NCBI GenBank assembly: GCA_041489255.1
Contig: JBGPQV010000003.1
Location: forward strand, 64,001 to 128,000
Origin: Thermoplasmata archaeon
GTDB lineage: Archaea > Thermoplasmatota > Thermoplasmata > RBG-16-68-12 > JAFNFQ01
Length of the DNA: 64,000 bases
Direction of reading: 5' to 3'
The notes under the pieces are model-generated. The model did no database searches, had not been told where the DNA came from, and worked only from the letters and a program-made list of their open reading frames with translations. A program made the position numbers and the translations under genes. Shown here one piece after another: positions 3,408 through 64,000 of this stretch (position 1 is the first letter of the stretch; every line of letters begins with the position of its first letter).

Positions 3408-3500
3408 CAATGTATCCTCCTCACGTCCCAACAATCCGCTCAATCCAATTGAATGGGACGCACGGGGATAACCATCTAGCCTTAAATGTTTAGTCTCCCG

Positions 3501-4548
3501 AACTGTGTTGAACAAATCCCGTCTTTTTCTCCCTCCGACCTCCCGACCTCCCGCCATCAGGGCATCTGCAGGAGCATCGCGTAGACAGCGAACTTCGCCA
3601 TGACCTCCCTGTACATCAGGTCGAGCCTCCTCGCCATCACGTTCTCCCCGAATATCCTCTTCTCGCCGGAGAAGGTCCACTCAGCCGCCCACCTCATCCC
3701 ATACCCGTGTTTCTCCCTCCAGCCATCGTACCCGAGGGACCTGAGCTCCCTCACCGCCCTCGGCCTGGCCGATGAGCCCAACGATTTGCAGGTCGCACCA
3801 GCCTTGATCCTGATCCCCGCCCCGATTCCTTTGTCCTCCAGGAGCTGGAAGTTCGCGCGGCTGTCGTAGGCGGCGTCGGCGAGGACCTCCCGTATGCGCC
3901 CCTTCCCCAGGGCCCTCTCCGCCTTCTCCAGCAGGGCGGGGAACATCGTCGTGTCGCCTATCCCCTCGTCGGTAGCTTTCATCGCCACGGGCCCTCCGTC
4001 AACGTCCACCGCCAGGTGCACCTTTATCCAGCCCCGGTGGCGGTGCCACTTCTCCCTCATCCACTCCCCCCTGTTCGTGACCTTGATTCCCGTGCTGTCG
4101 AAGGCGATCACGAACGGCCCGTCACCCTGAGGCGCGGGAATCTCAAGCTCCATGTCGGCTATCCGCCACCAGAGGGTCGTGTAGTCGGCAGGCCTGACCT
4201 TCCCCACGAACTTCGACATGCCGCAGAGGAAGCCCTCCATCTGCCTGTACTGCATCCTGAGGATCTGCCTGACGGCGGCGAGGAATCGCATCATGCTCTC
4301 GGGGAAGCCGTATGGACGCCCCCTCTTCCCGCCGTTCATCGTCCTCAGTTCGTCTTCCCACGAGTCCAGCCAGTCCATGCTGAGGTACAGCTCCCCCCGC
4401 CGGACGAGCCGCTCGTTGTACCCGGGCCAATTCCTCTTATCCTTGTAGTGCCTTTCACCCTCGCTCGGCATGGGTCCCATCCCTGCTGACAAGGCAGGTT
4501 CTCATGCCGAGTTCCCACCATCAAACCATCGATTTATTCAACACAGTT
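3501..4548 (-). mobile_element. Complete IS5-family insertion sequence (IS903-like), 1048 bp
   Basis: 18-bp terminal inverted repeats AACTGTGTTGAA(C/T)AAATC at 3501-3518 and 4531-4548 (1 mismatch); 8-bp direct repeat GTCTCCCG at 3493-3500 and 4549-4556; single transposase ORF inside. Confidence 0.95.
3557..4492 (-). CDS. IS5-family DDE transposase
   Basis: NWPGYNERLVRRGEL N-terminal motif, AFDSTGIK (D), WIKVHLAVD, LADAAYD (D), YGMRWAAEWTFSGEK (Y-R-E-K motif). True start may be a downstream ATG. Confidence 0.93.
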   Translation of the reverse strand: MSAGMGPMPSEGERHYKDKRNWPGYNERLVRRGELYLSMDWLDSWEDELRTMNGGKRGRPYGFPESMMRFLAAVRQILRMQYRQMEGFLCGMSKFVGKVRPADYTTLWWRIADMELEIPAPQGDGPFVIAFDSTGIKVTNRGEWMREKWHRHRGWIKVHLAVDVDGGPVAMKATDEGIGDTTMFPALLEKAERALGKGRIREVLADAAYDSRANFQLLEDKGIGAGIRIKAGATCKSLGSSARPRAVRELRSLGYDGWREKHGYGMRWAAEWTFSGEKRIFGENVMARRLDLMYREVMAKFAVYAMLLQMP

Positions 4549-21023: not shown

Positions 21024-21386
21024 TCACCGGCTCATCACCGCAACACCGTGCAGCCCCCAGCTTTCAAGGTTCGACAGGGCGCGCCACTTCAGCGGCCATG
21101 GCACGCACACCCTCGTCTCCCCCTGTTCGAGGGCCGCGCGGATCCTGTCCCTCGTCTCGGCGGAGTCCACGTCGCGCTCCAGGAGGACCAGCACCCTCAC
21201 TGCGTGAGAGAACTTGGTGGCGAGGATGTCGTGCAGCCTGGCTCCCCCCTCCAATAGAGGCTCGGATACCCATGACACCGAGAAGCTCTCCTCCTCCAGG
21301 AGGTCGCTGCAGCGGTCGAGGGCTTCCTGTAGGTCGTCCTCCATAACACTTATTGCCTTCCGCGAGAGGCTCTGCATGGCTTGCAT
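21024..21386 (-). CDS. Hypothetical protein; degenerate PD-(D/E)XK-like paralog of 24478-24837
   Basis: Ungapped alignment to the 24478 protein over ~66 aa (shared DI, ETR, V-x-x-P, G); divergent from the STAND gene across a shared TTTAAG box. Confidence 0.65.
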   Translation of the reverse strand: MQAMQSLSRKAISVMEDDLQEALDRCSDLLEEESFSVSWVSEPLLEGGARLHDILATKFSHAVRVLVLLERDVDSAETRDRIRAALEQGETRVCVPWPLKWRALSNLESWGLHGVAVMSR

Positions 21387-21440
21387 GCTACCTACGTTCC
21401 CTTCGTGACATTTAAGCCTCACGTGGAACTATCCACTTCG

Positions 21441-24477: not shown

Positions 24478-24837
24478 ATGCGAGTAAGTCCAAGAGACAC
24501 GGTGCTTCACGACCGGATGCTCCTGCTGCAGATCCAGACGTACCAGAAAGAGGGGTCGAGGGTGGTGGCCGCGGACCTGGACGGCTGGCCGATGCCGCCC
24601 ATGGTGGGCAGGCACGTCCCCGACATCATGGTCGAGTTTCACGGGAAGGTGGTCTACAACGAGGTGGAGACCTGCGAGACGATCGAGTTGCCGGAGACGA
24701 GGGAGCAGCTCGAGGACTTCGCGGAGCGGGCGACGCTGCATGTCACGATTCCACAATCCTGCCTGGAGACAGCTAGGCGAATCACAGCCGAACGGGGCAT
24801 CGAGGTCGAGACGTTCTGGCCCTACGGCGGGACGTGA
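24478..24837 (+). CDS. Small PD-(D/E)XK restriction-endonuclease-fold protein
   Basis: HDRM...ADLDGW.MP...HVPDIMVEFHGKVVYNEVET: PD...EVE core. Start set at ATG 24478, about 30 nt after ATTAAAAT. Confidence 0.7.
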   Translation: MRVSPRDTVLHDRMLLLQIQTYQKEGSRVVAADLDGWPMPPMVGRHVPDIMVEFHGKVVYNEVETCETIELPETREQLEDFAERATLHVTIPQSCLETARRITAERGIEVETFWPYGGT

Positions 24838-24859
24838 GACTACGCCGGTTGAGTCTGAA

Positions 24860-25453
24860 ATGCTCGAGATGAAGCGAAAGGTGTGCCTGGTCGGGGACGA
24901 GGGAGTCGGGAAGTCGTGTCTCATCCGCCGGTTCGCGTGCAACACATTTGACGAGGCCTACATCAGAACCGTTGGCACCATGGTTTCCAAGAGGGAGGTC
25001 GATCTCCCGGAGATGGGGTGCAGGATCACTCTGATGATCTGGGACATCATGGGCCGCAAGGACTTCATGGAGCTGTTCAAGGCTGCCTACTTCAACCACG
25101 TCAGGGGAATCGTTGCGGTGTTCGACCTGACCAGGCCCAAGACGCTCGACTCGCTGGATGATTGGATACGCAGCGTGCAGTCGTCCGTGGGCAAGATCCC
25201 GACCGTCGTCATGGCCAATAAAGTAGACTTCGAAATGGCAGACCGGTCGCTCGACGAAGACATCCAAGGATTCTGCGACTCGCATGCCCTCCGGTTTCTC
25301 AAGACCAGCGCCAAGACCGGCGAGAACGTGAAGGAGGCCATCAGTTACCTGGCGAGGGAGATGGTGACGGATGAGGAACAGGGAAGGACCTCGCCGCCTC
25401 TCGAGTCCCCATTGATCGCCTCACGCTCGCCTACGCGGGGGCGGACCGTCTGA
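24860..25453 (+). CDS. Rab/Ras-like small GTPase
   Basis: G1 GDEGVGKS, G2 YIRTVG, G3 IWDIMG, G4 NKVD, G5 TSAKTGENV. Confidence 0.93.
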   Translation: MLEMKRKVCLVGDEGVGKSCLIRRFACNTFDEAYIRTVGTMVSKREVDLPEMGCRITLMIWDIMGRKDFMELFKAAYFNHVRGIVAVFDLTRPKTLDSLDDWIRSVQSSVGKIPTVVMANKVDFEMADRSLDEDIQGFCDSHALRFLKTSAKTGENVKEAISYLAREMVTDEEQGRTSPPLESPLIASRSPTRGRTV

Positions 25454-28565: not shown

Positions 28566-31500
28566 CTAGCGCTCCGGCTTTCTCTGACGTTCCATCGAGG
28601 AAAGGTCGTCCCTGTGACGTTCCTCATGCCTCTTCCTGCTTTGCCGCACCAGATACGCGTGCACCACGAGGGACGCGGCAGCCACGATGATGATGACCAG
28701 GATCATCAGCCAAAACAGATCGGCCGGCCGTTCAACGCTTATGATGAGCCGGGACGTGATCGTCTGCCCCGCCGTCTCGGCATTGCCTGCCTTGTCCGTT
28801 GCGATTGCTTCGACTATGTAGTCTCCCGACTCGCTTGCCGCGAAGGTCACATTCGGCCCGGCCCCGGACGCCACCGGCTGACCGTCTTTGGTGACTGTCC
28901 ACGAGACGCTGGGCGTGCTCTGATTGTCAGACGCGTAGACCGTGCACCTGACCGTGCTTCCCTCGTCGACAATTAGGTTGTCGCAGTCGATGGTCACTTG
29001 CGGCCTTTCGTCGTCATAGACAACCGTGATCGACGCCAGCAATGAAGGGTTTCCAGCCCTGTCATGAGACTGTGCCTCGATCTTGTTCTCCCCAGGGGCG
29101 AGCGAGACCGTCGCGCTCCAGCCCATTGTCCCCGTGGCGTCTATCCAATTGCCCGTTCCCACGCGGATCTTCACCGCGGTCAGGATGTTGTCGTCGGAGG
29201 CGGTACCGGCGACTGACAGCGTTGAGTCCCGGATCATGGCGCCGTCGGCGGGCACCGCGATCGCGATGGTCGGCGGGACCGTGTCCACCTGCACCGTGAC
29301 CGTTGCGTGAGCCGACTCAGACCCGGCGATATCAAACGCCCTTGCCCGCAGAACATGTGTACCGTCGAGGAGACCGCTGCAGGCATACGTCCAGGAACTC
29401 GTCCCCGATGCCCTGCCCCATGTCACCCCGCCATCGCAACTGACCTGCACCTGGTCCAGCCCGCTCATCCCGGGACCTGCGGGGTCGCCCGTCGTCCCGT
29501 TGAGCACGACCGATGAGCTGTTCATCCATTGATCGTCGAGGGGCGACGCGATGGCGATTGCGGGAGCATCCGGGTCGTACCGCAAAGTCACCTCCGGGCG
29601 TGTCGACTCCCAACCGACGGTATCGAAGGCCCGGGCCTGCAAGACATTCGTGCCAGCGGTGAGTGTACAATCATGAGTCCAGGAGACCGTGCCCGCCGCC
29701 TGATTCCACGTGAGGCCTCCGTTACAGCTGACTTCCACACGCGCGACGCCACCGCCAAAATCGGAAGCAGTGCCAATGACGGTCATCACGGGAGACGTGA
29801 CCCAGCCGCCGCCCGATGGAGCGGTGATCGTGATCGCCGGCGGGGTGATGTCGACATGGAGCAGAATCTCCGCGCGCGCTGACTCCCAGCCGACCATGTC
29901 GAACACCCTTGCGCGGACCGTGTTCAGGCCCTCCACGAGGCCCGTGCAGACGTGAGTCCACGAGATGGTTCCCGACGCCACGAACCACGTCGTCCCGCCG
30001 TCGCAGCTGACCTCGACGCGGTCGAAGCCGCTCCCCGTCTCCGATGCTGTGCCCTTGATCATGGCCGTCGTGGTGTTGAGCCATTCGCCGTCAGGCGGTG
30101 CTGTGATTGCGAGGATCGGACGAGTCGTGTCAACTTGGACGGTCACTGTCGAATGCGTCGACTCCAAGCCCGCCTTGTCAAATGCCCGCGCCTGGATGCG
30201 GTGGGACCCGTCGGCGAGGCCGACGCAGTCGGATGTCCATGTGTCCGTGCCCGCGGCGTTGCTCCATGAGGCTCCGTCATTGCAGCTGATCTCGACACGG
30301 TTGAGGCCGCTCAGCGCGTCGAAGGCTGTGCCGGTCACCGTTATCGTGGAGACGTTGAACCATTGGCCGTCAGCAGGATCCGAAATCGCCAGGGTCGGGC
30401 GGTCAGGGTCGTAGAAGACCGCGACTGATTGGACTGCAGAGGGGTTGCCCGACCTGTCCAACGCCCGTGCGTCAATCTGATTGGAGCCGAGCGCCAGGCT
30501 CGTGCTGGCCGTCCATGACGATTTCCCCGTCGCGATCATCCAGAGTCCGCCGTTCGTGCGCACCTCGACCCGATCCAACCCGCCAAGGTCGTATGCCGTG
30601 CCCGTGACCGCGACCGGGATGGCGGTGAAGTACTGACCGTCCATCGGGGACGCGATTGCGAGCGCTGGCGGCACGAGATCGGGGTACTGCTCCATCAGGG
30701 GGTACCTGTCTCTGCTCTCGAAGTTCACGGCGTAGGGCACATCCCCTATGCCGTCGCCTTCAGGCTGGTCCTGGTTCGGCCCGCTGTAGAGGTCGCTATT
30801 GTGATAGTCGCTCCAACAGTTGCCCCCGGAGGGGTAGCCGTCGTCCCAGGAGCCGGGAACGGGATTGTTGTCCGAGGCCTGGATGACATTCCCCAGGAAG
30901 TTGTTATGATGCACAACGACTCCGGGCGATGAGTCGAACGAGACCCCGTAGAGATTGTTGGACAGCGTGTTGCGCGCAATCGTCGGATAGGGAGAGGAGA
31001 TGAAAAGCAAGCCCTCTCGAGTGCTGTTGGACACGGTGCTCATGGTGATCGAGATGTTGGCCGAGGAGGAAGCGTAGATTCCCCGCCAATTATCCGAGAA
31101 CCTGCCCTGGGCAATCGTGGTGTTCGGTGAGGACCAGATGGAGATTGCATCAGTCGTGCTCGACGTGACCGTGTCGTTGAACATGCTGATTCCTGTCGAG
31201 GAATAGAGAAGGATTCCGATCAGGCTGTCGGATACCTTGCTGTTGCCGATGAAACCGTCATCGACGTACGCCATCTCGATACCCGCTTCGGTTCTTGCGA
31301 TGTTGAGGTTCGACACGCTCACGGACAGGCAACTCGCGAAGATGAGCTGGCCGACGGCGACCCTGTCGACCGTGACGTCCATGCAGCTGGTGTAGTAGTA
31401 GATGGGCAGGCCGTTCACGGTGTTGTCGGGCGTTATTATGTGAGAATCGAAATGGAGGGGGGAACTCCCCCAGAGGAAGACGCCATCGTCAAAGAAGACA

Positions 31501-32060
31501 TTGGACATGATCGAGATGTTGACCGAGGACGATAGATAAATCCCGTACGAGCCGTTCGAGATCTCGTTCGAGACTATCGCGCTGTCCCTGGAAGACTCCA
31601 GGTACATGCCCAGGGAATTGTTCGAGACCTTGCTGGAAATGACAGTGATGTTGCCGGAGGAGACGAGATGGATGCCCGCGAGGTTATCCGACACCGTGGC
31701 GTTCTCAACCCTGCCGTTGATCGCGGTGTTGAGGTAGACACCGTCATTGAGGTTCGTTCTTCCCGAGTGAATCGTGACATTCCTGATCACGAAGTGCGCG
31801 TCGGTGTTCCTGATCTCGATGCCCCGACCGGTTGCTGCGTCGATGTCCCACCCCTCAATGACGAAGGGCGTGTCATATGTCCCGACGCCTCCTGCGACTC
31901 CGTTCGCTACTGTGAAGTCCGCATTGCCGTCTATCAAAATCGGAGCGTGGGGCGTCAGCGCGGAGACATCGTTCGGCAGAGAGACGAGCACTGATAGAGA
32001 TGTCAACGCCACCGCCATTGCCGTGATCAGAGTTATTCTCGGAGTCGAATCACCTGGCAC
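28566..32060 (-). CDS. Surface protein: NosD-type beta-helix, tandem bacterial Ig-like domains, C-terminal TM anchor
   Basis: GTG start after GGAGGAG; HAPILIDGN...IEGWDI, WDDGYPSGGNCWSDY, repeated TGTAxDxxSGxxRVEVSCxGGxTW Ig-like units, TM plus basic tail. Confidence 0.88.
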   Translation of the reverse strand: MPGDSTPRITLITAMAVALTSLSVLVSLPNDVSALTPHAPILIDGNADFTVANGVAGGVGTYDTPFVIEGWDIDAATGRGIEIRNTDAHFVIRNVTIHSGRTNLNDGVYLNTAINGRVENATVSDNLAGIHLVSSGNITVISSKVSNNSLGMYLESSRDSAIVSNEISNGSYGIYLSSSVNISIMSNVFFDDGVFLWGSSPLHFDSHIITPDNTVNGLPIYYYTSCMDVTVDRVAVGQLIFASCLSVSVSNLNIARTEAGIEMAYVDDGFIGNSKVSDSLIGILLYSSTGISMFNDTVTSSTTDAISIWSSPNTTIAQGRFSDNWRGIYASSSANISITMSTVSNSTREGLLFISSPYPTIARNTLSNNLYGVSFDSSPGVVVHHNNFLGNVIQASDNNPVPGSWDDGYPSGGNCWSDYHNSDLYSGPNQDQPEGDGIGDVPYAVNFESRDRYPLMEQYPDLVPPALAIASPMDGQYFTAIPVAVTGTAYDLGGLDRVEVRTNGGLWMIATGKSSWTASTSLALGSNQIDARALDRSGNPSAVQSVAVFYDPDRPTLAISDPADGQWFNVSTITVTGTAFDALSGLNRVEISCNDGASWSNAAGTDTWTSDCVGLADGSHRIQARAFDKAGLESTHSTVTVQVDTTRPILAITAPPDGEWLNTTTAMIKGTASETGSGFDRVEVSCDGGTTWFVASGTISWTHVCTGLVEGLNTVRARVFDMVGWESARAEILLHVDITPPAITITAPSGGGWVTSPVMTVIGTASDFGGGVARVEVSCNGGLTWNQAAGTVSWTHDCTLTAGTNVLQARAFDTVGWESTRPEVTLRYDPDAPAIAIASPLDDQWMNSSSVVLNGTTGDPAGPGMSGLDQVQVSCDGGVTWGRASGTSSWTYACSGLLDGTHVLRARAFDIAGSESAHATVTVQVDTVPPTIAIAVPADGAMIRDSTLSVAGTASDDNILTAVKIRVGTGNWIDATGTMGWSATVSLAPGENKIEAQSHDRAGNPSLLASITVVYDDERPQVTIDCDNLIVDEGSTVRCTVYASDNQSTPSVSWTVTKDGQPVASGAGPNVTFAASESGDYIVEAIATDKAGNAETAGQTITSRLIISVERPADLFWLMILVIIIVAAASLVVHAYLVRQSRKRHEERHRDDLSSMERQRKPER

Positions 32061-32196
32061 GAGGACTCCTCCAGATACTGGAAAGACGTGCGGACAAATC
32101 AAAGTATCGTCGGGACCTTGGATCGCTCGTTTCGACTTCTTTTTCGCGGGGGCAATGCATCCTCTCTGCCTTTGCCCTCCGAGTCAACGATCGAAG

Positions 32197-54132: not shown

Positions 54133-54957
54133 ATGAAGGTCCTCCTCGCTCAGCTCTCGCCCAAGGTCGGGGACAAAGAAGCCAACATCGCCATGATGGA
54201 GAAGGCGATCAGAAAAACGAAACCCGACCTCGCCGTCTTCGGTGAACTCTTCCTCACAGGGTACATGGCCCGCGACTCGTGGAGGACGCTCGCAGAGCCC
54301 GTGCCCGGACCGAGCACGCAAGCGGTCTCCGAGATAGCGCGCAAGAACTCGACCCACATCATCTTCGGGATGCCCGAGAGGGACACGAAGGCCAGACTGC
54401 TCTACAACGTGGCGGTACTCGTCACTCCAGATGGCACCGTGGAGAAGTACCGCAAGATCCACCCCGCCAACTTCGGGCCCTTCGAGGAGGGAATCTACTT
54501 CGCACGAGGGCGGGAGCCGAAGCTTGTCGAGACGGAGCTGGGCAAGATTGGCCTGATGATCTGCTTCGATTCCTTCTTCCCCGAGCTCGCGAAGGTCCTC
54601 GCTCTTCAGGGCGCCGATATCTTGGCGGTAATCTCCGCCGCGCCGAACACGAGCAAGCCGATGTTCGACAAGGTGCTGCCCGCCAGGGCGGTGGAGGACA
54701 CGTGCTTCGTGCTCTACTGCAACCTCGTCGGCACAGAACTCAACATTGTCTTCGCTGGCGGGACTCAGGCAATAGGGCCTCGCGGGGAGTACATCGGTGT
54801 CGCCAAGGACTACAAGGAGGACCTCGTGTTGGTTGATCTCGACCTCGCTGACCTGGGACCCGCCAGGCAGGCAAGGCCGACAATCAGAGACACCGACCCT
54901 CATCTGGTCGACCTCGCCCTCGGTCGCGGCGGGAAGAAGGGGCGGCGCAGGGACTAG
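54133..54957 (+). CDS. Carbon-nitrogen hydrolase (nitrilase superfamily)
   Basis: Glu-Lys-Cys triad: FGELFLTGY, YRKIH, ICFDSFFPE; ARAVED. Confidence 0.92.
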   Translation: MKVLLAQLSPKVGDKEANIAMMEKAIRKTKPDLAVFGELFLTGYMARDSWRTLAEPVPGPSTQAVSEIARKNSTHIIFGMPERDTKARLLYNVAVLVTPDGTVEKYRKIHPANFGPFEEGIYFARGREPKLVETELGKIGLMICFDSFFPELAKVLALQGADILAVISAAPNTSKPMFDKVLPARAVEDTCFVLYCNLVGTELNIVFAGGTQAIGPRGEYIGVAKDYKEDLVLVDLDLADLGPARQARPTIRDTDPHLVDLALGRGGKKGRRRD

Positions 54958-57900
54958 CCGTCGTCTGGCGGTGGCGGCGGGGCCTTCCTTTCAGCTAGCT
55001 CCTGCTGTTGCTCAGATTCCTTCCTCTTCCTTCGCTTCATCAGCAGGAGAATCACCGCCATGATGATGACGATGATGATCGCGACTGCGATGAGGATGAC
55101 CGATGTGTCGGTTCCTGAGGACCGCGACAGGGTCGTGCCGTCCTCTTGGGCCGGAGCGGACTCAATCCCTCGCGAGTTCACCGCGGTCACGTTGTAGTAA
55201 TAGATAGTCCCATCCGCCAGCCCGAGACCGACATTGTCATCGAGGAAGGTCGTCACCGTGACCAGGGGGCCGTTGACCTTCGTCCTCTGACCATTAGGCT
55301 GCGTCATCCTGTAGACGTTGTAGCCCCTCAGATCTGTCAATGGCGATGAGTCCGTGTTCAGGCTCGGCGCGGCCCAGCTCAGCCTGAGGGCTCCGAAGCC
55401 CTCCGGCACGACGGTGAGACCCGCCGGCGGGTTCGGCACCCTCTCGATGATCGAGGTCGTGTAGGTTTGACTCCGGACTCCGTTCAGGCTGCCGTCGACC
55501 GCCCAGATGTAGTAGGAGATCGAACCTGCGTGCGGCTGGCCCGCCACCTCGTAAGAGTACTCATCGGCGGTCACGACAGCCATGCTCACATTCCGCCTGA
55601 CGCCGTCGACATCCGTGTAGTCCAGCTTCACTTCCTGGACGAGGATGTTGTCGGTCACATTGGCGGTGATATTGAGCGCGACGGTGACCGGCCATGTCGC
55701 CCGGGGCGTATGTTCGATCGAGGGCGGCACCGACTCGGTTGTCTGGAAGATGCCCGTGTTCGTCTCCCAGTTCCCGCTGCTGTCGACCGCGGAGACCTTG
55801 TATTGATATGCGCCGACCAGATTCACCGCGTATTCGTAGTAGAAGGTCGGGCCACCGTCCATCGACTGATTCTCCGGCGTCTGGCCCGGGGCGGTGATTT
55901 CCACCCAGACCCCGGCGAGCAGGTAGTTGTCGGTGACATCCGCCGTGATGTTCGTCGAAGAGAGAAGCGCGACCGGGCTCGGCGTGGCGGCAAGATTGAC
56001 GATCAGCGGGGGCGTGTTGTCCTCGACATCGAAGGTGCTGACCGCCACCGCCCACAGGTCGACCGAATCCTTCGCAGACACTTTGAATATGTAAGCTCCG
56101 AGCTGGTCGGGAATCGTCTCCCTGGAGTACCTCGGTCCCGCGATCATCGACCGGTTCGTCCGCGTGAGGTCCGGCGCCGTCACCTCGACCCAGACCTCCG
56201 AGAGCAGGTAGTTGTCGGATACGAGCGCCGAGAGGTTCGTCGATGCGAACACTTCCACCGGGTTCGGGACTGCCCTCAAGTCCGAGATGGATGGTCTCGT
56301 CGTGTCCTCACATGTGAATTGACCCGAGGTCGAGTTCCGGTTACCGCTGGTGTCGGATGCCCAAATCACGAACGTGTGCAGACCGAGCATCCCGCAGTTC
56401 CTCTCCAGGAAGTAGCGCATCCCGAATGGGTCATACGACATCGTGGAGTTGATGGTACCGGCAGCGGGATTCGTAACGTTGAGCCAGACTTGGCCAACGG
56501 CGACATTGTCGCGAATCACGGCTGACACATTTACGGGGAAGTAGACCTCCTGAGGATCCGGGATTGCCGTGGCTGACGTGAGCGTCGGCCTCTCGACATC
56601 CACGAATGAGGCGGTGGTGAAGGTCCAACTGTATGGCGTTGCGAGGTTGTTGCCAGGGTCGGATGCGTCTCTGGCCGATGTCGTGAAGTTCGCGGAGTAC
56701 TGGGTGCCCGACGCAAGCACGCTCGTCGGGCCGAAGGTCATTATGCTCCCTGCCCAAGACAGCGTTCCCGCCACGGGAGTCCATGTGGCAGTGTCCTTCA
56801 GCGAGAAAGCCGACTCCGCCGATGTCCTCATCATCGGCTCGGACCATGCTGCCTGGACATTCGCGCTGGTCGGAACGCCGGTCTCCCCCGAGAACGGGCT
56901 TGTGGAGGAGACTATTGGCGGTGTCGAGTCGATCTCGAGCGCGGGAGAATATCCGTACCCGGTTCCCCCAATTGTGTCGACGACGACGGCCTGCAAAACG
57001 ACCGCAGTGCTGTCTTCAAATGGGACTGTCCAAGCGTATGGCCTGGCATCGCCTGCCACGCCCTGGAGTCCAGCGATCTGATGGTCGAAGGGACCAGCTC
57101 CCGTCACTGAGTAATTGACCCAGACCTTGAGGTTCCCGATGGAATCCTCGGCGTCATACGCCGTCCAATCGATGTTGTGAATCGTCCCGCCGGTCCAGCT
57201 CTCCCCGCCTGCAGGTGCGGTGATGCCGATCGTCGGCGGCGTATTGACAATCGTGGTGAAGGACCATATATAATCAAGGATCATGGAATTGCCTGGATTG
57301 GATACGTCCCTCGCGCCGGTCCAGACCGTCGCGGTGTAGGTCGTGGAATATGAGAAATCCACATGATCAATGGTCAACGTGTCATCTGGGAAGATCCTCT
57401 GCGACCAGCTGAATATCAAGGTGCCCATATTCGGCACCAGAGTGAAGGCTGATTCAACTGAGGCGGTGTCCATTCTCTCCGAGAACTGGACAACGATAGG
57501 AGCAGTGAGAGCGACCCCCGTGCCCGTCGGTGACGCGCTCACGACGAATGGCCACGTCGAGTCTATCTGGGGGACCAAGACCGTGCTGTACCCTTTTAGT
57601 CCGTTTGCGTCGATGACGGTCGCGTTTATCCTCACATCGGTTGCGTCGATTGTCGGCACTGTCCATCCGTAGATGGTCGCGCCAGCAAGCGGTCCTGCAA
57701 TCGTGCCTGAGCTCGGCGTCGAGGTGTAGTTGAGGTAGATCCTGAGGCTACCGGGCGGAGTCGTGTCGTCGCTCATTGTCCAAGTGATCATCTGCGAAGA
57801 ACCGCCCGTCCAGTCCTGCGCGCCACTCGGGTTTGTCAGAGAAATCGAAGGTGGGTTGTTCACAGGCGGAGCCGTGCCGCTTCCGAAGCAGTAGATCCTT

Positions 57901-59141
57901 CCACCGTTGCCCCATGTGCCGACGCAAACCCTCCCGTCTGAGATCGCAGGTGAAGAGTCAACGTCCCCATACAACGGCGCTTGCCACCTGTATGCGGCGG
58001 GATTCGTCTGGTTCGCGTTGAACGAGTAGAGGTAGTTCGATTTAGATCCGATGAAGACCTTGCCGTCCGAAATGGCGGGGGAAGACCAGATGTCTCCTCC
58101 TGTCGCGTAGTTCCAGACCACGGCACCTGTCTGCGCATCAAGCGCGTAGAGATTGTCGTCGACGGAACCCACGAAGACCTTGCCGTAAGCCACCGCAGCC
58201 GAGGAGAAGAATGATTGCGAGCCCGAAGGCGGGAATGCCCATATCTGGCTCAGGTCATTCGCGCTGAGGGCGCGGAACTTGGCTGCTGTGGTCGTGAATG
58301 TGTAGCCATCCCCGATGTAGACTTTCCCATCGTAGATCACCGGAGAACCGTACATGCTCTTGTACCTGGCAGATGTGGCGCTGGCAACCGCAGCTCCCGA
58401 TTGGGCGAGGCTAATCTTGTAGACGTACCCGTCGGGTGCCGCGAGGTACGCGTAGCCATTGCAGATCGCTGGTGCACCATACAGGCCGTAATTGGTGCCA
58501 TCGGGGTGAGCCGACTGTGTTTGGAAGTACCAGACCTCGCTCCCTGTGTTCTGATTCAGGGCATGCAGCCGCCTGTCAGCCCCTCCTATGAAAACCATGC
58601 CCTGGGCGACCGCAGGCGTCCCGCTCCCCCATAGAGTGTTCGGGACCGTGAACCTCCATTTGACGGTGCCGTTGTTGGCATGAAGGGCATAGAGCTTATC
58701 GGCTCCAAAGAACAGCAGTCCGTTGGAATATGCTGGAGTGGCGCTCACGCCAGTGTTGCTCGAAACCTGTGCGTCAGTTCTCATCCTCCAAGCCAGGGTG
58801 CCGTTGTTGATGTGGAAGGCGAGCATCGAGTCCCCTGAGGGAGAACCCATCCCGATGAACACCTTGCCCTCGGCAATCGTTGGCGAACCGTACATGTTCG
58901 GGCCGGTGGAATTGTACCAAAAGACCCTCTCATCGTCCGGGGAAGGTGACTTCGTGAGCGACGAATGCGTCTCGTTGTAGGTGTACATCGGCCAGGGATA
59001 TGTGGTGGTGGCCATAGGTTGAAGCGAGTCACTGCCACTGTTCCCCCAAGGCCGAACCGGTTCGCTGGCGGTGAGCCAAGGTGCCTGCGCCACAACCATG
59101 AATCCTGCTGCCAGCACGAACACGAGGCCAAGGCGACTCAA
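54954..59141 (-). CDS. Surface protein: PQQ-like beta-propeller, Ig-like and FN3 domains, C-terminal TM anchor
   Basis: Signal peptide, SSPAIxDGKVFIGS/LYALxAxxGxxxW repeats, VQFSERMD/WSEPM Ig-like units, GYNVYR FN3, TM plus KRRKRK. Confidence 0.9.
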   Translation of the reverse strand: MSRLGLVFVLAAGFMVVAQAPWLTASEPVRPWGNSGSDSLQPMATTTYPWPMYTYNETHSSLTKSPSPDDERVFWYNSTGPNMYGSPTIAEGKVFIGMGSPSGDSMLAFHINNGTLAWRMRTDAQVSSNTGVSATPAYSNGLLFFGADKLYALHANNGTVKWRFTVPNTLWGSGTPAVAQGMVFIGGADRRLHALNQNTGSEVWYFQTQSAHPDGTNYGLYGAPAICNGYAYLAAPDGYVYKISLAQSGAAVASATSARYKSMYGSPVIYDGKVYIGDGYTFTTTAAKFRALSANDLSQIWAFPPSGSQSFFSSAAVAYGKVFVGSVDDNLYALDAQTGAVVWNYATGGDIWSSPAISDGKVFIGSKSNYLYSFNANQTNPAAYRWQAPLYGDVDSSPAISDGRVCVGTWGNGGRIYCFGSGTAPPVNNPPSISLTNPSGAQDWTGGSSQMITWTMSDDTTPPGSLRIYLNYTSTPSSGTIAGPLAGATIYGWTVPTIDATDVRINATVIDANGLKGYSTVLVPQIDSTWPFVVSASPTGTGVALTAPIVVQFSERMDTASVESAFTLVPNMGTLIFSWSQRIFPDDTLTIDHVDFSYSTTYTATVWTGARDVSNPGNSMILDYIWSFTTIVNTPPTIGITAPAGGESWTGGTIHNIDWTAYDAEDSIGNLKVWVNYSVTGAGPFDHQIAGLQGVAGDARPYAWTVPFEDSTAVVLQAVVVDTIGGTGYGYSPALEIDSTPPIVSSTSPFSGETGVPTSANVQAAWSEPMMRTSAESAFSLKDTATWTPVAGTLSWAGSIMTFGPTSVLASGTQYSANFTTSARDASDPGNNLATPYSWTFTTASFVDVERPTLTSATAIPDPQEVYFPVNVSAVIRDNVAVGQVWLNVTNPAAGTINSTMSYDPFGMRYFLERNCGMLGLHTFVIWASDTSGNRNSTSGQFTCEDTTRPSISDLRAVPNPVEVFASTNLSALVSDNYLLSEVWVEVTAPDLTRTNRSMIAGPRYSRETIPDQLGAYIFKVSAKDSVDLWAVAVSTFDVEDNTPPLIVNLAATPSPVALLSSTNITADVTDNYLLAGVWVEITAPGQTPENQSMDGGPTFYYEYAVNLVGAYQYKVSAVDSSGNWETNTGIFQTTESVPPSIEHTPRATWPVTVALNITANVTDNILVQEVKLDYTDVDGVRRNVSMAVVTADEYSYEVAGQPHAGSISYYIWAVDGSLNGVRSQTYTTSIIERVPNPPAGLTVVPEGFGALRLSWAAPSLNTDSSPLTDLRGYNVYRMTQPNGQRTKVNGPLVTVTTFLDDNVGLGLADGTIYYYNVTAVNSRGIESAPAQEDGTTLSRSSGTDTSVILIAVAIIIVIIMAVILLLMKRRKRKESEQQQELAERKAPPPPPDDG

Positions 59142-59282: not shown

Positions 59283-59816
59283 TCACGACCCGCTTCTCGC
59301 GTCCGCATCCGGCACCGTGCATCCCCGCCAGTATTCGCAGCAACCAGCCACCTTCGAGATGGCGGGAGTGATCAGGAACGCCATCAGCGCGAACACAGTC
59401 ACGGCGATGAACAGGAACCATGAGAACTGAAACACGAGAATCGGCGCGGCGGCGAACACCGGCGCGAGCCACGAGGGGGCGACGTAGGCCCAGATGAGCC
59501 TATACCGCTTGGGCATCAGTCTGACGTCCCCTTTCCTGAAGAGCGCTGTCGACATCGTGCTGTAGCCGCACGGGCAGACACCGCCATAGTACGGGCAGTT
59601 CACGCAGACAGTCGCCCACATCGCCACGGTGCTCGCTACGCAGTAGAAGGCGTAGATTACGGCGGCGGGCCAGCAGAACAGGGAGATCGTCGTCACCCCG
59701 ACCGCGTATGTCGCGAATGTAGCGGTGTTCCCCTGGAAGAACGCCCTCGGGAACCTGTACTCCCGTTCGATGACTGTCGCAGCAGCCTTGTCCACGACCG
59801 ATGTCGACGACTCCAT
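59283..59816 (-). CDS. Cys-rich multi-TM membrane protein, last gene of the nifB operon
   Basis: About four TM helices, CVNCPYYGGVCPCG loop and C-terminal CCEYWRGC; ATG 17 nt after the nifB stop. Confidence 0.7.
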   Translation of the reverse strand: MESSTSVVDKAAATVIEREYRFPRAFFQGNTATFATYAVGVTTISLFCWPAAVIYAFYCVASTVAMWATVCVNCPYYGGVCPCGYSTMSTALFRKGDVRLMPKRYRLIWAYVAPSWLAPVFAAAPILVFQFSWFLFIAVTVFALMAFLITPAISKVAGCCEYWRGCTVPDADARSGS

Positions 59817-59833
59817 CTTCTGCCCACTTCTCC

Positions 59834-60673
59834 CTAGTAGAATGCGGATGAAATGTCGCAGCCAAGCAGCCCTATCGCGTCGGCCCTGCACCTAGCGCAG
59901 TGCTCGATCTGCCTTATGTGCTTCCTGCACTCATTTCTGACTGTTCGAATCTCCAGCCCGCTCGGCGCCTTCCTCTCTTCGAACTCGCTCCCCTTGACAG
60001 CCAGGAACGGGATGACATTCTGGACCAGCGCACCCGCCTCGCTCGCCCTCAGTGCAATCTTCGGAAGCTCCTCCTCGTTGATGCCTGGGATGAGCACCGA
60101 GTTGACCTTGACGATAAGACCCTCGTCGACGCACTTCGCCAACCCGTCCCATTGCTTATCGGACAATGTCTGGAATGCGTCCTGACCTGTCAGCGTCTCG
60201 CCGCTGTCCCTCACCCACGAGTAGATCTCCGCCCCGATCCGCGGCTCGAGCGCATTGATTGTCACAGTAACGTACTTGACCCCGAGGGACACGATTTCAT
60301 CGACATATTGCGGGAGGAGGAGGCCGTTCGTCGCGAGGCAGAGCGTCATGTCCGGGAACTCCCCGCCGACGAGCCTTAGCGTCTCGAATGTCTCCTTGTT
60401 CGCGAGCGGTTCGCCCGGACCCGCGATCCCAATGACGGAGAGATTTCCCAGCTTATCGCGGACGCGGCGCACCAGCGCGGCCGCCTCTTCCGCCTTGAGC
60501 AGCTTCGACGTTACCCCTGGACGCGTCTCGTTCGAGCAGTCGAAGGCCCTGTTGCAGAACCTGCATTGGATATTGCACGCGGGAGCGACAGGCAGATGCA
60601 TCCTCGCGTACTTCCAGTGAGCCTCGGCGCTGTAGCAGGGATGAACCGATATTGACTCAGGGATCGCGCTCAA
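59834..60673 (-). CDS. nifB: NifB-type radical SAM protein (SAM domain only)
   Basis: All NifB motifs present: HPC, CNIQCRFC, ETRP, AGPG, TVTIN, CARCRADAIG. Confidence 0.88.
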   Translation of the reverse strand: MSAIPESISVHPCYSAEAHWKYARMHLPVAPACNIQCRFCNRAFDCSNETRPGVTSKLLKAEEAAALVRRVRDKLGNLSVIGIAGPGEPLANKETFETLRLVGGEFPDMTLCLATNGLLLPQYVDEIVSLGVKYVTVTINALEPRIGAEIYSWVRDSGETLTGQDAFQTLSDKQWDGLAKCVDEGLIVKVNSVLIPGINEEELPKIALRASEAGALVQNVIPFLAVKGSEFEERKAPSGLEIRTVRNECRKHIRQIEHCARCRADAIGLLGCDISSAFY

Positions 60674-60676
60674 GCC

Positions 60677-62035
60677 CTACTCCACCCCCTCTCGGTTCGC
60701 TTGAATCATCTCGAGGAAGGCCTCGACTCTTATCCTGATCTGGCCGATGTCCCCGTCGCTCAGCTCGCTCCTGATCGTCAGCGCGGGGATGCCCATTCTC
60801 TTGAGCAGGTTTGTGAGCCTCGTCGCGTCGAGCGTGTGAAGGTGACATCCCTGCATCGCGTGGAAGATGACGCCCTCGACTCCGCCATTCTTCACCTCGT
60901 TGATGATGTTCTCCTCTCTCTCGACGTTCGGAGTGAAGCATGGGCAGGTCGATGGGAACAGGTAGCGGTCCGCGATCGCGTCCAGCATGGCCCTCTCGGT
61001 CCACTCGTCAACGACGACAGGGTCGTAGAGCACCCTGGTCCCTGAACAGAGTTCATCTGAGACGATGACCGCACCGACCTCCTCGACGATGTCCGGCAGC
61101 TTCCAGTTCGGCCACATGACGGGCGAGCCCGCAAGCATCACGCGGGGGGCATCCCCGTTCGCTACGTTCTTCTTCGCCAAGACCATCTTCTCCAGCTCGT
61201 CTGAAAGCCTGTTCACGTTCTCCGTCCACCGCGCGATGTCGTCGACGTATGCGAGCCAAGCAATCAGGAGGAAATGCCTGCCCCAGAGCACGTCGCCCTT
61301 CCTCCTCGTGTCCAGCAGCCTCCTCCAGGCCTTGTGCGCGCGCTGGTACTTCTCGATGGACGCCCGGAGGCTCTTCCTCGTTATCTTGTTCCCCGTGAGC
61401 ATCTCCATCCTGTTCCTGACCGTTATGATTTCCTGGATCCACTGCCTGCGGATCGACTCTCCCTGCTTGATGCGGGGAACGTTCATGGGGACTATCGCCC
61501 TGACCTCCCTGAACTCGTCGGAGATCTTCAGCTTCGCATCGCACGGCGCGGGAGCGATGATGGCGTCGCACTGGGAGAACAGCGGGAAGTCGTCTATCAT
61601 CATGCACCCCGCGCACGCCTTCACTATGGAGCACATGTTCGGGTCGCCGAGGTACGCCTCGCCCAGGCCAACTGGCGGTAAATAGCCGCATCCGAGGGCC
61701 ACCGGGAGGGCGCCCGCCGCATCGACCAGCTCGACCGGCACGAAGTTGCAGAGCGTGCCGACCACCTTCCCGCCGCCCGCCTTGAACTGGTTGATCTCCT
61801 TGACGCGCCTGTCGTGAATCCTCGCGACATCGATGAAGTAGTCCATTACGGCCGGCTTGTTCTTCAGGGAGGCGAGCTTCTGCGCCTCGTCCTCGATCTT
61901 CTTGATGCTGTTCGCGGTCATATCGGCTCCCCGGCCCGCCACGAGAGACTTGATCCTCTCTCGCGCGCCGGAGTCCGCCTGCGCCTTCGCATCGTTCTTC
62001 GCCGGCTCAATTCCCTTTCTCTTCTGTAGGCTCAC
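60677..62035 (-). CDS. 2-hydroxyacyl-CoA dehydratase-family protein, double-cubane cluster protein (DCCP)-like
   Basis: VGTLCNFVPVELVDAAGA, NMCSIVK, APCDAKLK, DELCSGTR, RYLFPSTCPCFTPN, QGCH, GQIRIRVEAFLEM. Confidence 0.85.
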   Translation of the reverse strand: MSLQKRKGIEPAKNDAKAQADSGARERIKSLVAGRGADMTANSIKKIEDEAQKLASLKNKPAVMDYFIDVARIHDRRVKEINQFKAGGGKVVGTLCNFVPVELVDAAGALPVALGCGYLPPVGLGEAYLGDPNMCSIVKACAGCMMIDDFPLFSQCDAIIAPAPCDAKLKISDEFREVRAIVPMNVPRIKQGESIRRQWIQEIITVRNRMEMLTGNKITRKSLRASIEKYQRAHKAWRRLLDTRRKGDVLWGRHFLLIAWLAYVDDIARWTENVNRLSDELEKMVLAKKNVANGDAPRVMLAGSPVMWPNWKLPDIVEEVGAVIVSDELCSGTRVLYDPVVVDEWTERAMLDAIADRYLFPSTCPCFTPNVEREENIINEVKNGGVEGVIFHAMQGCHLHTLDATRLTNLLKRMGIPALTIRSELSDGDIGQIRIRVEAFLEMIQANREGVE

Positions 62036-62047
62036 TTCAATCTCCCC

Positions 62048-62983
62048 TTAGACAGGATAATCGACCATTGACTTCGAGGTGAGGATCTTCTTCCCCATGA
62101 ACGTCGCAGAGAGCGCGCCGTCCTCGGGGCACGCCTCAAGGCAGGAATAGCAGTGTGTGCAATTCCGCGCTGTCACGTTGCGGCTCGTCTTCTCCTTGTA
62201 CATGTCCTCGATGCCCATGGGGCAGACCCTTGCGCAGATCCTGCAGCTCGTGCACTTCGTCGCGTCCTTCGTCAGCTGCATGAAGGACCTCCTGTGCACT
62301 AAGCCCATGAGCGCCCCTGCGGGGCAGATGTGACACCAGAACCGCCTGATCACGAAGCACATGACGATGAAGAATATCGCGGTGCCTATGGAGACTATCG
62401 GGACGATTGTCGTCGGCGGCAAGATGCCTAGCCAGATCTGCGGATAAACGTAGAGCGCCCTGTTCGGGTCGACCCACTCGTAAGGTATCGGCAGCCCGGT
62501 CCTCAGCTGGCTCAGGCCGGTGCCAGGCATCCCCAGCGCGACCGTGTATGAGAGAATCAGGAACAGGGCCAGGTACTTCGTAGCGTGCAGAGCATCGCTC
62601 ACCATCTTCGACATCCTGTAATACGGGATGCCGAGCCGCTTCCTGAGACCGGAGAGCAGGTCCTGCGGCAATCCGAGGGGGCAGAGCCAAGCGCACCAGA
62701 CCCGCCCGAGTATGAGCACCAGTATGATGAAGAGGAAAATCGGCAGCACGATGTCGGTGTAGAGCGTCTTGAACTCCGCCACCGCGGTGTCCTGCAGCTT
62801 GTAGACGAGCGAGTAGGTCGGAGCGTCCGCGAAGAACTTCGTCGTGGCGTTCGGCCAGTAGATGTCCCTCAGGTAAGGCGTCTCGCCGAACGACGCGACC
62901 CCGAAGACCATACAATTGAAGAGCACCAGGGCTGCGACCTGGAACGCCAGCCTCGGCCTCGAAATCCTGTGCTGCCTTTTCAT
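62048..62983 (-). CDS. Membrane 4Fe-4S protein (NapH/FixG-like)
   Basis: GRVWCAWLCPLG, RFWCHICPAG, two ferredoxin motifs CTSCRICARVCP and CTHCYSCLEACP. Confidence 0.9.
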   Translation of the reverse strand: MKRQHRISRPRLAFQVAALVLFNCMVFGVASFGETPYLRDIYWPNATTKFFADAPTYSLVYKLQDTAVAEFKTLYTDIVLPIFLFIILVLILGRVWCAWLCPLGLPQDLLSGLRKRLGIPYYRMSKMVSDALHATKYLALFLILSYTVALGMPGTGLSQLRTGLPIPYEWVDPNRALYVYPQIWLGILPPTTIVPIVSIGTAIFFIVMCFVIRRFWCHICPAGALMGLVHRRSFMQLTKDATKCTSCRICARVCPMGIEDMYKEKTSRNVTARNCTHCYSCLEACPEDGALSATFMGKKILTSKSMVDYPV

Positions 62984-62989
62984 GATCCT

Positions 62990-63679
62990 CTACTGACCTC
63001 CGTGCGTGCTCACGAATGCGTTCACGATGAAGTAGACGCCAAGGACGATCATCATCAACGCCGCGCCCACCCTCATGTAGAGCGCGTACCTCTTCGACTC
63101 GCGGATGATGTTGCCCGAAAGGAATCCGATGACCGGGTAGATCGTCGATGCCGCGGCGAAGACCATGACCATGCCGATCGCGAGGCCGAAGTCGACGGAG
63201 ATTAGCAGCGGAGCCAGCACCATGATCTTCACGCATGGCGTCGCTCCCCTGACGACACCGAGGAGGAATATGTAGGCAATCTTCGCCTTCGAATTCCCCT
63301 CGAAGTCTATCTCGCCGCCATCGGCCATGACCGCCCTCTGGCCCTTCCCGTGGTGCATTCCCCGGTGGAACAGCCTGAGGAGAGGATGACCGTGCTTCGC
63401 CATGTGGTGTCTTGTGAGGACTCTAATCAGGACGAAGGCGCCGAGCGCGACGGTCAGAGCGCCGAACGTGACGAGGAAGAAGACCGGGTTCAGGTCCTGG
63501 ACGAGGCCGAGACCGGCTATCGCGCCTCCGAGGAGGACGAGCCCCAGGAACCTTCCAGCGATGAACGCGGCTCCTCCCTTCTTGCTGTCGATGGAGCAAC
63601 CCAGGGAGAGCAGCGCGCAGACCCACGCGTTGCCGAGTGAACCGCCGACCGCTGCCGCCGCTAGCAATTCCTCAATCAT
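62990..63679 (-). CDS. Multi-TM protein of CcdA/DsbD-like or TauE-like type with His-rich loop
   Basis: Six hydrophobic helices, membrane Cys in GNAWVC and GATPC, loop HHMAKHGH...HRGMHHG. Confidence 0.65.
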   Translation of the reverse strand: MIEELLAAAAVGGSLGNAWVCALLSLGCSIDSKKGGAAFIAGRFLGLVLLGGAIAGLGLVQDLNPVFFLVTFGALTVALGAFVLIRVLTRHHMAKHGHPLLRLFHRGMHHGKGQRAVMADGGEIDFEGNSKAKIAYIFLLGVVRGATPCVKIMVLAPLLISVDFGLAIGMVMVFAAASTIYPVIGFLSGNIIRESKRYALYMRVGAALMMIVLGVYFIVNAFVSTHGGQ

Positions 63680-64000
63680 TTCGCATCCTCCTCCTTCGCC
63701 GCCTTCGGCTTTCTGACCTTGATGTAGATGTTGATGCCGATGAGCAACATGATCACGAGGGAGGCGATGGCCAACTCGAAAGCCCAGCCCGTGTAGTCCC
63801 TCCCGCCAAGCGTGTACTCGATCGTGTGCTTCGCGCCATCGATCACGAAGATGTGCGGGGCGGTGTACGCGCTGGTGAAGTCCGCCTTGCCCTGATAGCC
63901 GCCCTGGCCGGCCACTATCTCGATCTGTCCGTCGCCGTCGACATCGCCGAGGGCGAGCCCAAGCACATCAGAGCCGAGCAGGGGGCTCTTCCATTCGATC
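63676..64000 (-). CDS. FG-GAP-like repeat protein with C-terminal TM anchor (5' end outside the window)
   Basis: Frame open to the window edge: IEWKSPLLGSDVLGLALGDVDGDGQIEIVAG...TM-KVRKPK; overlaps the next gene's start (ATGA). Confidence 0.75.
   Translation of the reverse strand, partial: IEWKSPLLGSDVLGLALGDVDGDGQIEIVAGQGGYQGKADFTSAYTAPHIFVIDGAKHTIEYTLGGRDYTGWAFELAIASLVIMLLIGINIYIKVRKPKAAKEEDAK

Follow-up and report, generated by a model that had tools for sequence, protein, structure and literature searches.

What does a NifB make, and for which protein, in an archaeon that has neither nitrogenase nor methyl-coenzyme M reductase (MCR)? The question is raised by a stretch of 64,000 nucleotides (the window; contig C3:64001-128000) from the genome of an uncultured sediment archaeon of the Thermoplasmata (2.74 Mb, 41 contigs, 96.5% complete), in which a nifB gene lies in a minus-strand operon beside the gene of a double-cubane cluster protein (DCCP). 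Since 2025, the only role proposed for NifB without nitrogenase has been MCR activation in methanogens, while the natural role and the electron source of double-cubane reductases have been unknown since 2018. The operon links such a reductase to membrane Fe-S proteins, carrier proteins and surface propellers, without the usual ATPase. With neither nitrogenase nor MCR to serve, the NifB of this archaeon must have another use, for which the operon offers a short list of candidates. We propose, at a rough probability of 0.4, that NifB serves a remodelled, activator-poor membrane DCCP system, probably through an 8Fe relay cluster and not through the DCCP active site. If true, this would extend the uses known for nitrogenase-type clusters and would bear on their origin before nitrogen fixation.

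A NifB without a known client

The nifB gene encodes a protein of 279 residues (NifB279) that scores 361.4 bits against TIGR01290, above the cut-off of 343.65 (361.7 bits in the genome-level search), and is the sole nifB match in the genome. Its alignment to the solved NifB structures 6Y1X (E = 3.3e-82) and 7BI7 (E = 9.6e-73) spans the region from the HPC motif to the C-terminal CxxCRADA motif, with an identity to a solved NifB of about 50%, estimated by eye from the alignment. His26 and Cys13, 33, 37, 40, 46, 112, 249, 259 and 262 have identical residues in 6Y1X; in the comparison with 7BI7, Cys46 adjoins a gap of one residue, and 7BI7 has a residue other than Cys at position 249. We take these residues to be the ligands of the K1, K2 and radical-SAM clusters. 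NifB279 consists of the radical-SAM core alone, without a NifX domain. The original prediction had named the protein NifB and listed all six signature motifs in it; the name was upheld by the family score and by the aligned metal ligands, which were checked instead of the motifs as such, and NifB279 is, as judged from its sequence, a complete and genuine NifB.

The known partners of NifB are missing. It had been noted that nifH, D, K, E and N are absent from the window, and profile searches extended this absence to the whole genome, which gave no match to PF00148 (Oxidored_nitro), PF00142 (Fer4_NifH) or the NifX-type family PF02579. Because the PF00142 control was positive in 14 of 14 control genomes, its zero count here is unusual, and more weight was placed on PF00148, which was also without a match in all five NifB-bearing relatives searched. 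Likewise, the genome has no match to MCR_alpha (PF02249), MCR_C (PF04609) or Mmp7 (TIGR03274), and MCR_alpha was found in 0 of 41 genomes of the same order. Three L-type [8Fe-9S-C]-like clusters, bound by McrC/Mmp7 of the MCR activation complex, act as an electron path there, and NifB is named as the likely maker of such clusters in methanogens, according to a 2025 report (PMC12176620). This report and an earlier preprint propose that the NifB of nitrogenase-free methanogens supplies the McrC/Mmp7 clusters (PMC12176620; bioRxiv 10.1101/2023.10.20.563283). This one non-nitrogenase use so far put forward is inapplicable here, and the NifB of this archaeon is without any known client, be it nitrogenase or MCR activation.

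The operon and its double-cubane reductase

Six genes are tightly packed on the minus strand between 59283 and 64000 of the window (open reading frame listing), with intergenic distances of -4 (an overlap), 6, 12, 3 and 17 nt, and a seventh gene, encoding a 1395-aa propeller protein, follows memb202 after 141 nt as the last of the conserved cluster:

63676..64000, continuing past the window edge, minus strand: FG-GAP propeller protein, C-terminal part and membrane anchor (FG-GAP_3, 5.2e-26 for the full 440 aa)
62990..63679, minus strand: memb229, 229 aa, six hydrophobic segments (hydropathy)
62048..62983, minus strand: NapH-like membrane polyferredoxin (NapH311), 311 aa (Fer4_5, 1.2e-14, and ferredoxin motifs)
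60677..62035, minus strand: DCCP452, 452 aa (Pfam HGD-D, 2.2e-86)
59834..60673, minus strand: NifB, 279 aa (TIGR01290, 361.4 bits)
59283..59816 from an ATG (177 aa), or to 59891 from an upstream GTG (202 aa), minus strand: memb202
54954..59141, minus strand: PQQ-type propeller surface protein, 1395 aa (Pfam PQQ_2, 4.5e-32; Big_5, 4.7e-30)

All six genes of the run that had been described were recovered in their places, and family scans backed their labels (FG-GAP, Fer4_5 with ferredoxin, HGD-D and Radical_SAM). Past the right edge of the window lie the rest of the FG-GAP gene and genes for a WD40 propeller of 411 aa (WD40, 8.7e-46), a PQQ propeller of 550 aa (PQQ_2, 6.4e-41) and an FtsX/MacB-type permease of 1217 aa (FtsX, 5e-28), beyond which the genes are unrelated. 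The stretch that holds the operon is present in several sediment metagenome runs; for 59283-63679, no RNA data set was among those listed as containing it.

The best NCBIfam match of DCCP452 is NF040772 ('double_cubane'), at 297.1 bits and thus below the cut-off of 350, the next family reaching 96 bits; against the Carboxydothermus DCCP (6ENO), E = 1.5e-66. The DCCP motif is CX19CX18-19CX29CX166-170CX32-34CX32C, of which six Cys ligate the [8Fe-9S] double cubane (PMC7317905). In DCCP452 the motif reads C96-X19-C116-X18-C135-X29-C165-X164-C330-X33-C364-X32-C397 and is complete in its seven Cys, with one spacer, of 164 residues between the fourth and the fifth, two residues short of the range 166-170. 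All seven Cys are invariant in eight aligned orthologues. By these features, DCCP452 is a divergent but complete 7-Cys DCCP, and its ligand motif points to a double cubane. A statistical tie of DCCPs to selenium metabolism and the SAO locus, with SelD in nearly all genomes that have high-scoring DCCPs, is described in a preprint (Haft & Gwadz); in the genome studied here, no SelD reached the TIGR00476 cut-off (best 86.6 bits versus 125).

No gene for the activator ATPase (BcrAD_BadFG) was found in the operon, in the 15 kb past the window edge or in the 20 kb fetched around the locus. The original prediction had supposed that it might lie past the right edge, where the WD40, PQQ and FtsX genes were found instead. 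A search of the genome for the activator, which had been suggested as a check, returned three BcrAD_BadFG ATPases above the cut-off, two on contig C10 that adjoin two HGD-D genes and one on contig C5 that adjoins a 410-aa HGD-D gene. No other 7-Cys DCCP is encoded in the genome, and DCCP452 has no activator gene of its own. The pair on C5 was considered as a second DCCP with its activator and was rejected, as two of the seven Cys are missing from the C5 protein. This lone HGD-D protein (G000:C5:106017-108048; L008:1375-3406), with five of the seven DCCP Cys and directly before its BcrAD_BadFG ATPase, is by sequence a partner-less dehydratase-type enzyme with its own activator. In other genomes, activator-linked DCCP genes of loci L238, L239, L036 and L040 encode proteins of 757-846 aa, hence fused to a further domain.

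The membrane proteins of the operon are related to known families at a distance. NapH311 scores 82.7 and 84.6 bits against TIGR02163 and NF007013, below the cut-offs of 213 and 234, and it carries the motifs CAWLCP and CHICP as well as two CxxCxxCxxxCP ferredoxin motifs; it would be expected to work like the NapH/MauN family without being an orthologue of its members. The protein memb229 has Cys21, Cys28 and Cys149 and a cytoplasmic-type loop with seven His. It gave no Pfam match, including DsbD_2 (PF13386), even at E <= 10, and no NCBIfam match, while the similarity of its Protein Atlas features to DsbD_2 clusters (0.93) serves as a lead only; memb229 is probably a DsbD_2-like thiol or metal carrier. 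The 1395-aa PQQ protein contains Big_5 and fn3 domains and hydrophobic segments at residues 4-22 and 1348-1366, and each of the four propeller proteins has a hydrophobic segment near its N-terminus and is anchored at its C-terminus.

Linkage of NifB with the DCCP system

Among 41 genomes of the order, NifB occurs in 13 and a DCCP orthologue in 13, and both occur together in 12; one genome has only DCCP (86% complete), one has only NifB (78% complete), and 27 have neither. All 14 genomes with one or both genes belong to families f1, f2 and f3, and those without either comprise 25 sampled genomes of f4-f7 and two of f3 (one f7 genome gave only a weak match to an HGD-D paralogue, at 26% identity). 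In f1 and f3, tblastn on fetched loci recovered the order FtsX-PQQ-WD40-FGGAP-memb229-NapH-DCCP-NifB-memb202-PQQ, and its repetition in another genome of the genus and in a further family shows that it is no assembly accident. The f2 cluster has the same order without NifB and memb202 (tblastn). In all three families, memb229 is kept upstream of NapH and an orthologue of the 1395-aa PQQ protein stands in the same position, and tblastn found no activator in the related f1-f3 loci.

A wider scan with a DCCP alignment, limited to one genome per species, gave 80 loci, the closest of them from metagenome-assembled genomes titled Thermoplasmata and 'Methanobacteriota'. NapH adjoins DCCP in 28 of these loci, NifB lies in the locus in 7 and an activator in 23. 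Two further gene orders include NifB: memb229-NapH-DCCP-Act-Act-memb202-NifB-PQQ (L037) and memb202-PQQ-WD40-FGGAP-memb229-NifB-NapH-DCCP (L047). When 21 further genomes with the module were searched whole, NifB was present in 8, comprising 2 of the 12 with an activator in the locus and 6 of the 9 without one, the other three of these nine being contigs of 2.3-5.2 kb. Genomes G041 and G042 have an operon of the order FtsX-PQQ-NifB-memb202 at a distance from DCCP of 18 kb and 9.5 kb, respectively. The linkage of NifB with a DCCP membrane system, claimed from this locus, thus recurs in several lineages and in four gene orders. A metagenome scan with a NifB alignment found the module in one of the 80 closest NifB loci (L114, whose NifB and DCCP are 70% and 82% identical to those of the window), the other 79 having no module gene within 6 kb. 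A literature search, with supplementary files outside its scope, found no publication describing the linkage of NifB and DCCP.

In a phylum sample of 301 Thermoplasmatota genomes, NifB is present in 51, of which 42 fall in four families that have it throughout (36/36, 4/4, 1/1 and 1/1). MCR was present in the one genome tested in three of these four families, the fourth being outside the test. A DCCP orthologue occurs in 39 of the 301 genomes, and an activator lies within 4 kb in 29 of the 33 DCCP loci fetched from the sample. Outside the four NifB-rich families, 7 of the 9 NifB genomes carry a DCCP orthologue, compared with 32 of the 250 NifB-less genomes; three of the seven are genomes G045, G046 and G048 of the wider scan. 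The two remaining NifB genomes, without DCCP, are G070, in which a nitrogenase-type gene lies near NifB, and G101, which is 63% complete. DCCP does not imply NifB, while an otherwise orphan NifB is nearly always accompanied by this DCCP orthologue.

A quick tree of DCCPs (midpoint root) united those of f1-f3, G041-G043, G045 and G053 in one clade with a support of 93 (Shimodaira-Hasegawa-like approximate likelihood-ratio test, SH-aLRT). All 11 members of this clade come from NifB genomes, and 10 of the 11 are without an activator beside DCCP. In a quick tree, the NifBs of f1 and f3 (support 99) group with those of f2 (support 84), the NifBs of G041-G043, G045, G053, G046, G155, G048 and G052 make up a clade of their own (support 99), and the NifBs of the MCR families form a third (support 99); the backbone was unresolved, and vertical descent from a Methanomassiliicoccales-type clade is neither shown nor excluded. 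The occurrence of two NifB lineages within one DCCP clade argues that the presence of NifB matters to the system. In an alignment of the second lineage (A2; L103, L105, L106, L037, L047 and L107), '..S-x-Y/F-Y-H-S/T..' was found in place of Cys46, and L107 as well as L108 is without Cys249. Judging from these residues, the NifBs of the second lineage and of L108 may bind their clusters differently.

Absence of the activator is accompanied by differences in NapH and DCCP, as found in a comparison of 11 activator-less with 13 activator-linked modules. Four NapH Cys between hydrophobic segments (reference positions 48, 58, 169 and 172) are all present in 12 of the 13 activator-linked modules and together in none of the 11 activator-less ones, in which isolated Cys remain in three sequences, including G053 at three positions. 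Conversely, His277 of NapH, within the last ferredoxin motif, occurs in 10 of 11 activator-less but in only 1 of 13 activator-linked modules, while a DCCP His at reference position 123 is found in all 13 activator-linked modules and in none of the 11 activator-less ones. NapH311 of the window is of this 'type II' variant, without the four Cys and with His277. There are two exceptions: G045 has activators and NifB, yet its NapH is of the activator-less type, and G053, whose contig stops right after DCCP, has a NapH of the activator-linked type.

The small protein memb202, encoded directly after NifB, has four hydrophobic segments and nine Cys, with a C-x2-C-x6-C-x-C-G-Y motif after the second hydrophobic segment and a C-terminal Cys cluster, and gave no Pfam match even at E <= 10 and no NCBIfam match. 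Alignments give the family motif as C-x2-C-x6-7-C-(P)-x-G-Y at the same place, again with a C-terminal Cys cluster. Members adjoin NifB in f1, f3, G041-G043 and G045. The family occurs in 46 of the 301 Thermoplasmatota genomes, and NifB lies within 1.5 kb in only one of the 29 family loci fetched from that sample, so that memb202 was rejected as a dedicated partner of NifB. A complex prediction for NifB with memb202, run without controls, scored 0.02 against a mark of 0.32, a value that counts neither for nor against a pairing. Most family genes follow anchored surface proteins or FtsX, or are fused to them, and the sequences characterize memb202 as a general component of surface operons, from an undescribed family of Cys-rich membrane anchors. 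In L204:1498-3222 and other loci of the series L195-L223, the memb202 domain can be a C-terminal fusion on a secreted 575-aa protein, and family genes were also found after FtsX or NapH-like genes. In f2 loci (L110:8212-13550, L113:6525-13905 and L112:5716-9439), a conserved set combines an FG-GAP surface protein of about 1220 aa and a memb202-like paralogue with a radical-SAM/SPASM enzyme nearest to AhbD/NirJ (below cut-offs), an XcbA/DUF7714 protein and a NadA-like protein.

Two loci found in these searches hold other NifB contexts. In G070 (L260:4000-8679), whose genome has no MCR_alpha, an Oxidored_nitro gene (7.5e-118) lies three genes from NifB, with an NMT1-type binding protein and two ABC-transporter-like genes (placed by the starts of their reading frames only) between the two and a glutamine synthetase on the other side of NifB; this locus may represent a nitrogenase-like system in the Thermoplasmatota. 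In G211 (L251:3965-6366), a NifB-NifX-type fusion (Nitro_FeMo-Co, 5.3e-13) is followed 125 nt later by a 337-aa HGD-D protein with three of the seven DCCP Cys. A general link between NifB and HGD-D proteins, suggested by G211, was rejected, as such 3-Cys homologues are common in NifB-less genomes and were not found in the MCR families.

What the NifB product might serve

The operon would represent a lineage-specific form of a conserved, undescribed membrane redox system of archaea, in which beta-propellers anchored at the surface and a permease of the FtsX type face outwards, the membrane holds a NapH-like polyferredoxin and a DsbD_2-like carrier, and a 7-Cys DCCP reductase lies on the cytoplasmic side. 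The core of propellers, DsbD_2-like protein, NapH-like protein and DCCP is widespread in Thermoplasmatota, where DCCP is usually followed by an ATP-driven activator. In the clade of the window, the dedicated activator appears to have been mostly lost from the module and NapH and DCCP to have changed, with NifB always present in the members examined and often in the operon. NifB would make an [8Fe-9S-C]-type cluster for some component of this system. Its product is probably not the catalytic cluster, because DCCP keeps its six-Cys ligation and most related modules run without NifB. It would more likely be a relay of very low potential that feeds DCCP through the membrane module, replacing the activator or working beside it, an idea modelled on the L-type cluster electron path of the MCR activation complex (PMC12176620). 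In its boldest form, which we consider unlikely, the proposal gives NifB-made [8Fe-9S-C]-type clusters a third home after the nitrogenase family and MCR activation: in Thermoplasmata that are neither methanogens nor diazotrophs, they would form an ATP-independent relay of very low potential, set in the NapH-like and Cys-rich membrane proteins, that charges DCCP in place of an archerase-type activator.

Several observations weigh against a service of NifB to this system. All of the evidence is genomic context, and an evident L-cluster site was found in no protein. Among the 39 DCCP genomes of the phylum sample, 32 are without NifB; in family f31, this holds for 20 of 21 such genomes. The NifB of f2 is unlinked, lying 165 kb away in the sole single-contig genome and on other contigs in the rest, where its neighbours resemble hydantoinase-type and deaminase-type genes (candidate labels from reading-frame starts alone), and in G043 the FtsX-PQQ-NifB-memb202 operon is 700 kb from DCCP. 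G045 has both activators and NifB, and G048, G120 and G211 have an activator-linked DCCP with NifB elsewhere; furthermore, the three BcrAD_BadFG ATPases encoded elsewhere in the genome studied here could act in trans. The NifB-positive DCCPs form largely one clade, and the contrast between activator and NifB may reflect one or two historical events among kin that are not independent. Finally, the NifB lineage of G041-G043, G045 and G053 is without one K1 Cys, and may not make the same product.

The original prediction held that NifB may mature an unusual 8Fe cofactor for a non-nitrogenase, membrane-fed reductase. Its tie of NifB to the DCCP/NapH system was supported; its choice of target, the cofactor of DCCP itself, was not, and of these two readings, service to the system is the stronger and maturation of DCCP's own cofactor the weaker. 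It seems improbable that NifB acts on the catalytic 8Fe cluster of DCCP, by building or altering it and so making, for example, a carbide-containing or fused cluster instead of the sulfide-bridged double cubane. Such a role would suit the distance of only 3 nt between the two genes here and their adjacency in f1, f3 and L114, the divergence of DCCP452 (the only 7-Cys DCCP of its genome, and below the NF040772 cut-off), and the 8Fe:9S count shared by the L-cluster and the double cubane in two reports (PMC7317905; PMC12176620). It is opposed by the invariance of the seven Cys in eight orthologues and by a six-Cys ligation that fits two cubanes but not an L-type cluster, as well as by the absence of linkage in f2 and G043. 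Because most DCCP genomes have an activator and no NifB (32 of 39 are NifB-less), NifB is unneeded for double-cubane assembly. To our knowledge, Escherichia coli has no NifB. The Carboxydothermus DCCP was made with its cluster in that host (PMC7317905), and the L-type cluster of the MCR activation complex is described as held by two terminal ligands (PMC12176620).

NifB may also have no functional tie to the operon, having been kept for a client elsewhere or as a methanogenic leftover shared with the Methanomassiliicoccales, and may have come to lie in a surface/FtsX neighbourhood prone to rearrangement. We regard this as possible but rather unlikely. The same class holds MCR-bearing families with NifB in 42 of 42 sampled genomes, the f2 NifB stands alone beside unrelated genes, memb202-family genes are general in surface-protein/FtsX operons with one of 29 loci adjoining NifB, and 79 of the 80 closest metagenome NifB loci have no module gene within 6 kb. 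However, four gene orders hold NifB in or near the system and two NifB lineages do so, DCCP accompanies NifB in 7 of 9 genomes outside the MCR families versus 32 of 250 NifB-less ones, families f4-f7 of the same order are without both genes, and no known client is encoded in the genome. It is quite improbable that this NifB-like enzyme carries out another radical-SAM reaction, such as the modification of memb202 or of another operon product. Although memb202 directly follows NifB in f1, f3 and G041-G043, its f2 paralogue adjoins a different radical-SAM/SPASM enzyme, and the second NifB lineage lacks one K1 ligand, all of which would agree with such chemistry, NifB279 has retained all ligands of the K1, K2 and radical-SAM clusters, shares about 50% of its residues (estimated by eye) with a solved NifB and passes the equivalog cut-off, and most members of the memb202 family have no linkage to a NifB. 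Service to the membrane DCCP system, probably by way of a relay cluster, is the reading that we retain.

Elsewhere, the window carries a small Ras-family GTPase at 24740-25450 on the plus strand (Pfam Ras, 6.9e-33; Roc, 3.7e-24), closely preceded on the same strand by an 880-aa AAA/TPR protein at 21381-24020; Ras-like GTPases are uncommon in archaea. Giant surface proteins crowd the window, all on the minus strand, at 3-3680, 7782-10523, 13165-15744, 15815-20140 and 28569-32102, and include a protein with eight PKD domains, an SBBP propeller with DUF7948, a BNR protein and two NosD/beta-helix proteins (1442 and 1178 aa).

The putative system shares parts with several known ones. With the NifB-NifEN-NifDK pathway of diazotrophs it has in common the NifB core with its radical-SAM, K1 and K2 ligands, but the genome is without NifH, NifD/K/E/N-type and NifX-type genes, and NifB is without a NifX domain. 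The NifB of methanogens that have no nitrogenase is closer in carrying the full ligand set in a nitrogenase-free genome and in its implied use for a low-potential 8Fe electron-transfer cluster; it differs in that MCR, McrC and Mmp7 are absent here and the neighbours of NifB are DCCP and membrane Fe-S proteins, and in the quick tree the NifBs of the order and those of the MCR-bearing Thermoplasmata families fall into different clades. NapH311 shares with the NapH/MauN/NosR/CcoG polyferredoxins the Fer4_5 membrane domain, the Cys-x(2-3)-Cys-Pro motifs and a C-terminal two-cluster ferredoxin domain, while its partners are a DsbD_2-like protein and DCCP instead of NapG, NapC and NapA. Finally, DCCP452 belongs to the same HGD-D fold family as the DCCP of the Carboxydothermus hydrogenoformans DCCP/DCCP-R system (6ENO, 7YYL; PMC7317905; PMC9351452) and has its full 7-Cys motif. 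It differs in falling below the NF040772 cut-off, in an N-terminus about 20 residues longer, in the spacing of 164 instead of 166-170 residues between the fourth and fifth Cys, and in lacking an adjacent activator gene (DCCP-R), its own gene being placed in an operon of membrane and surface proteins together with NifB.

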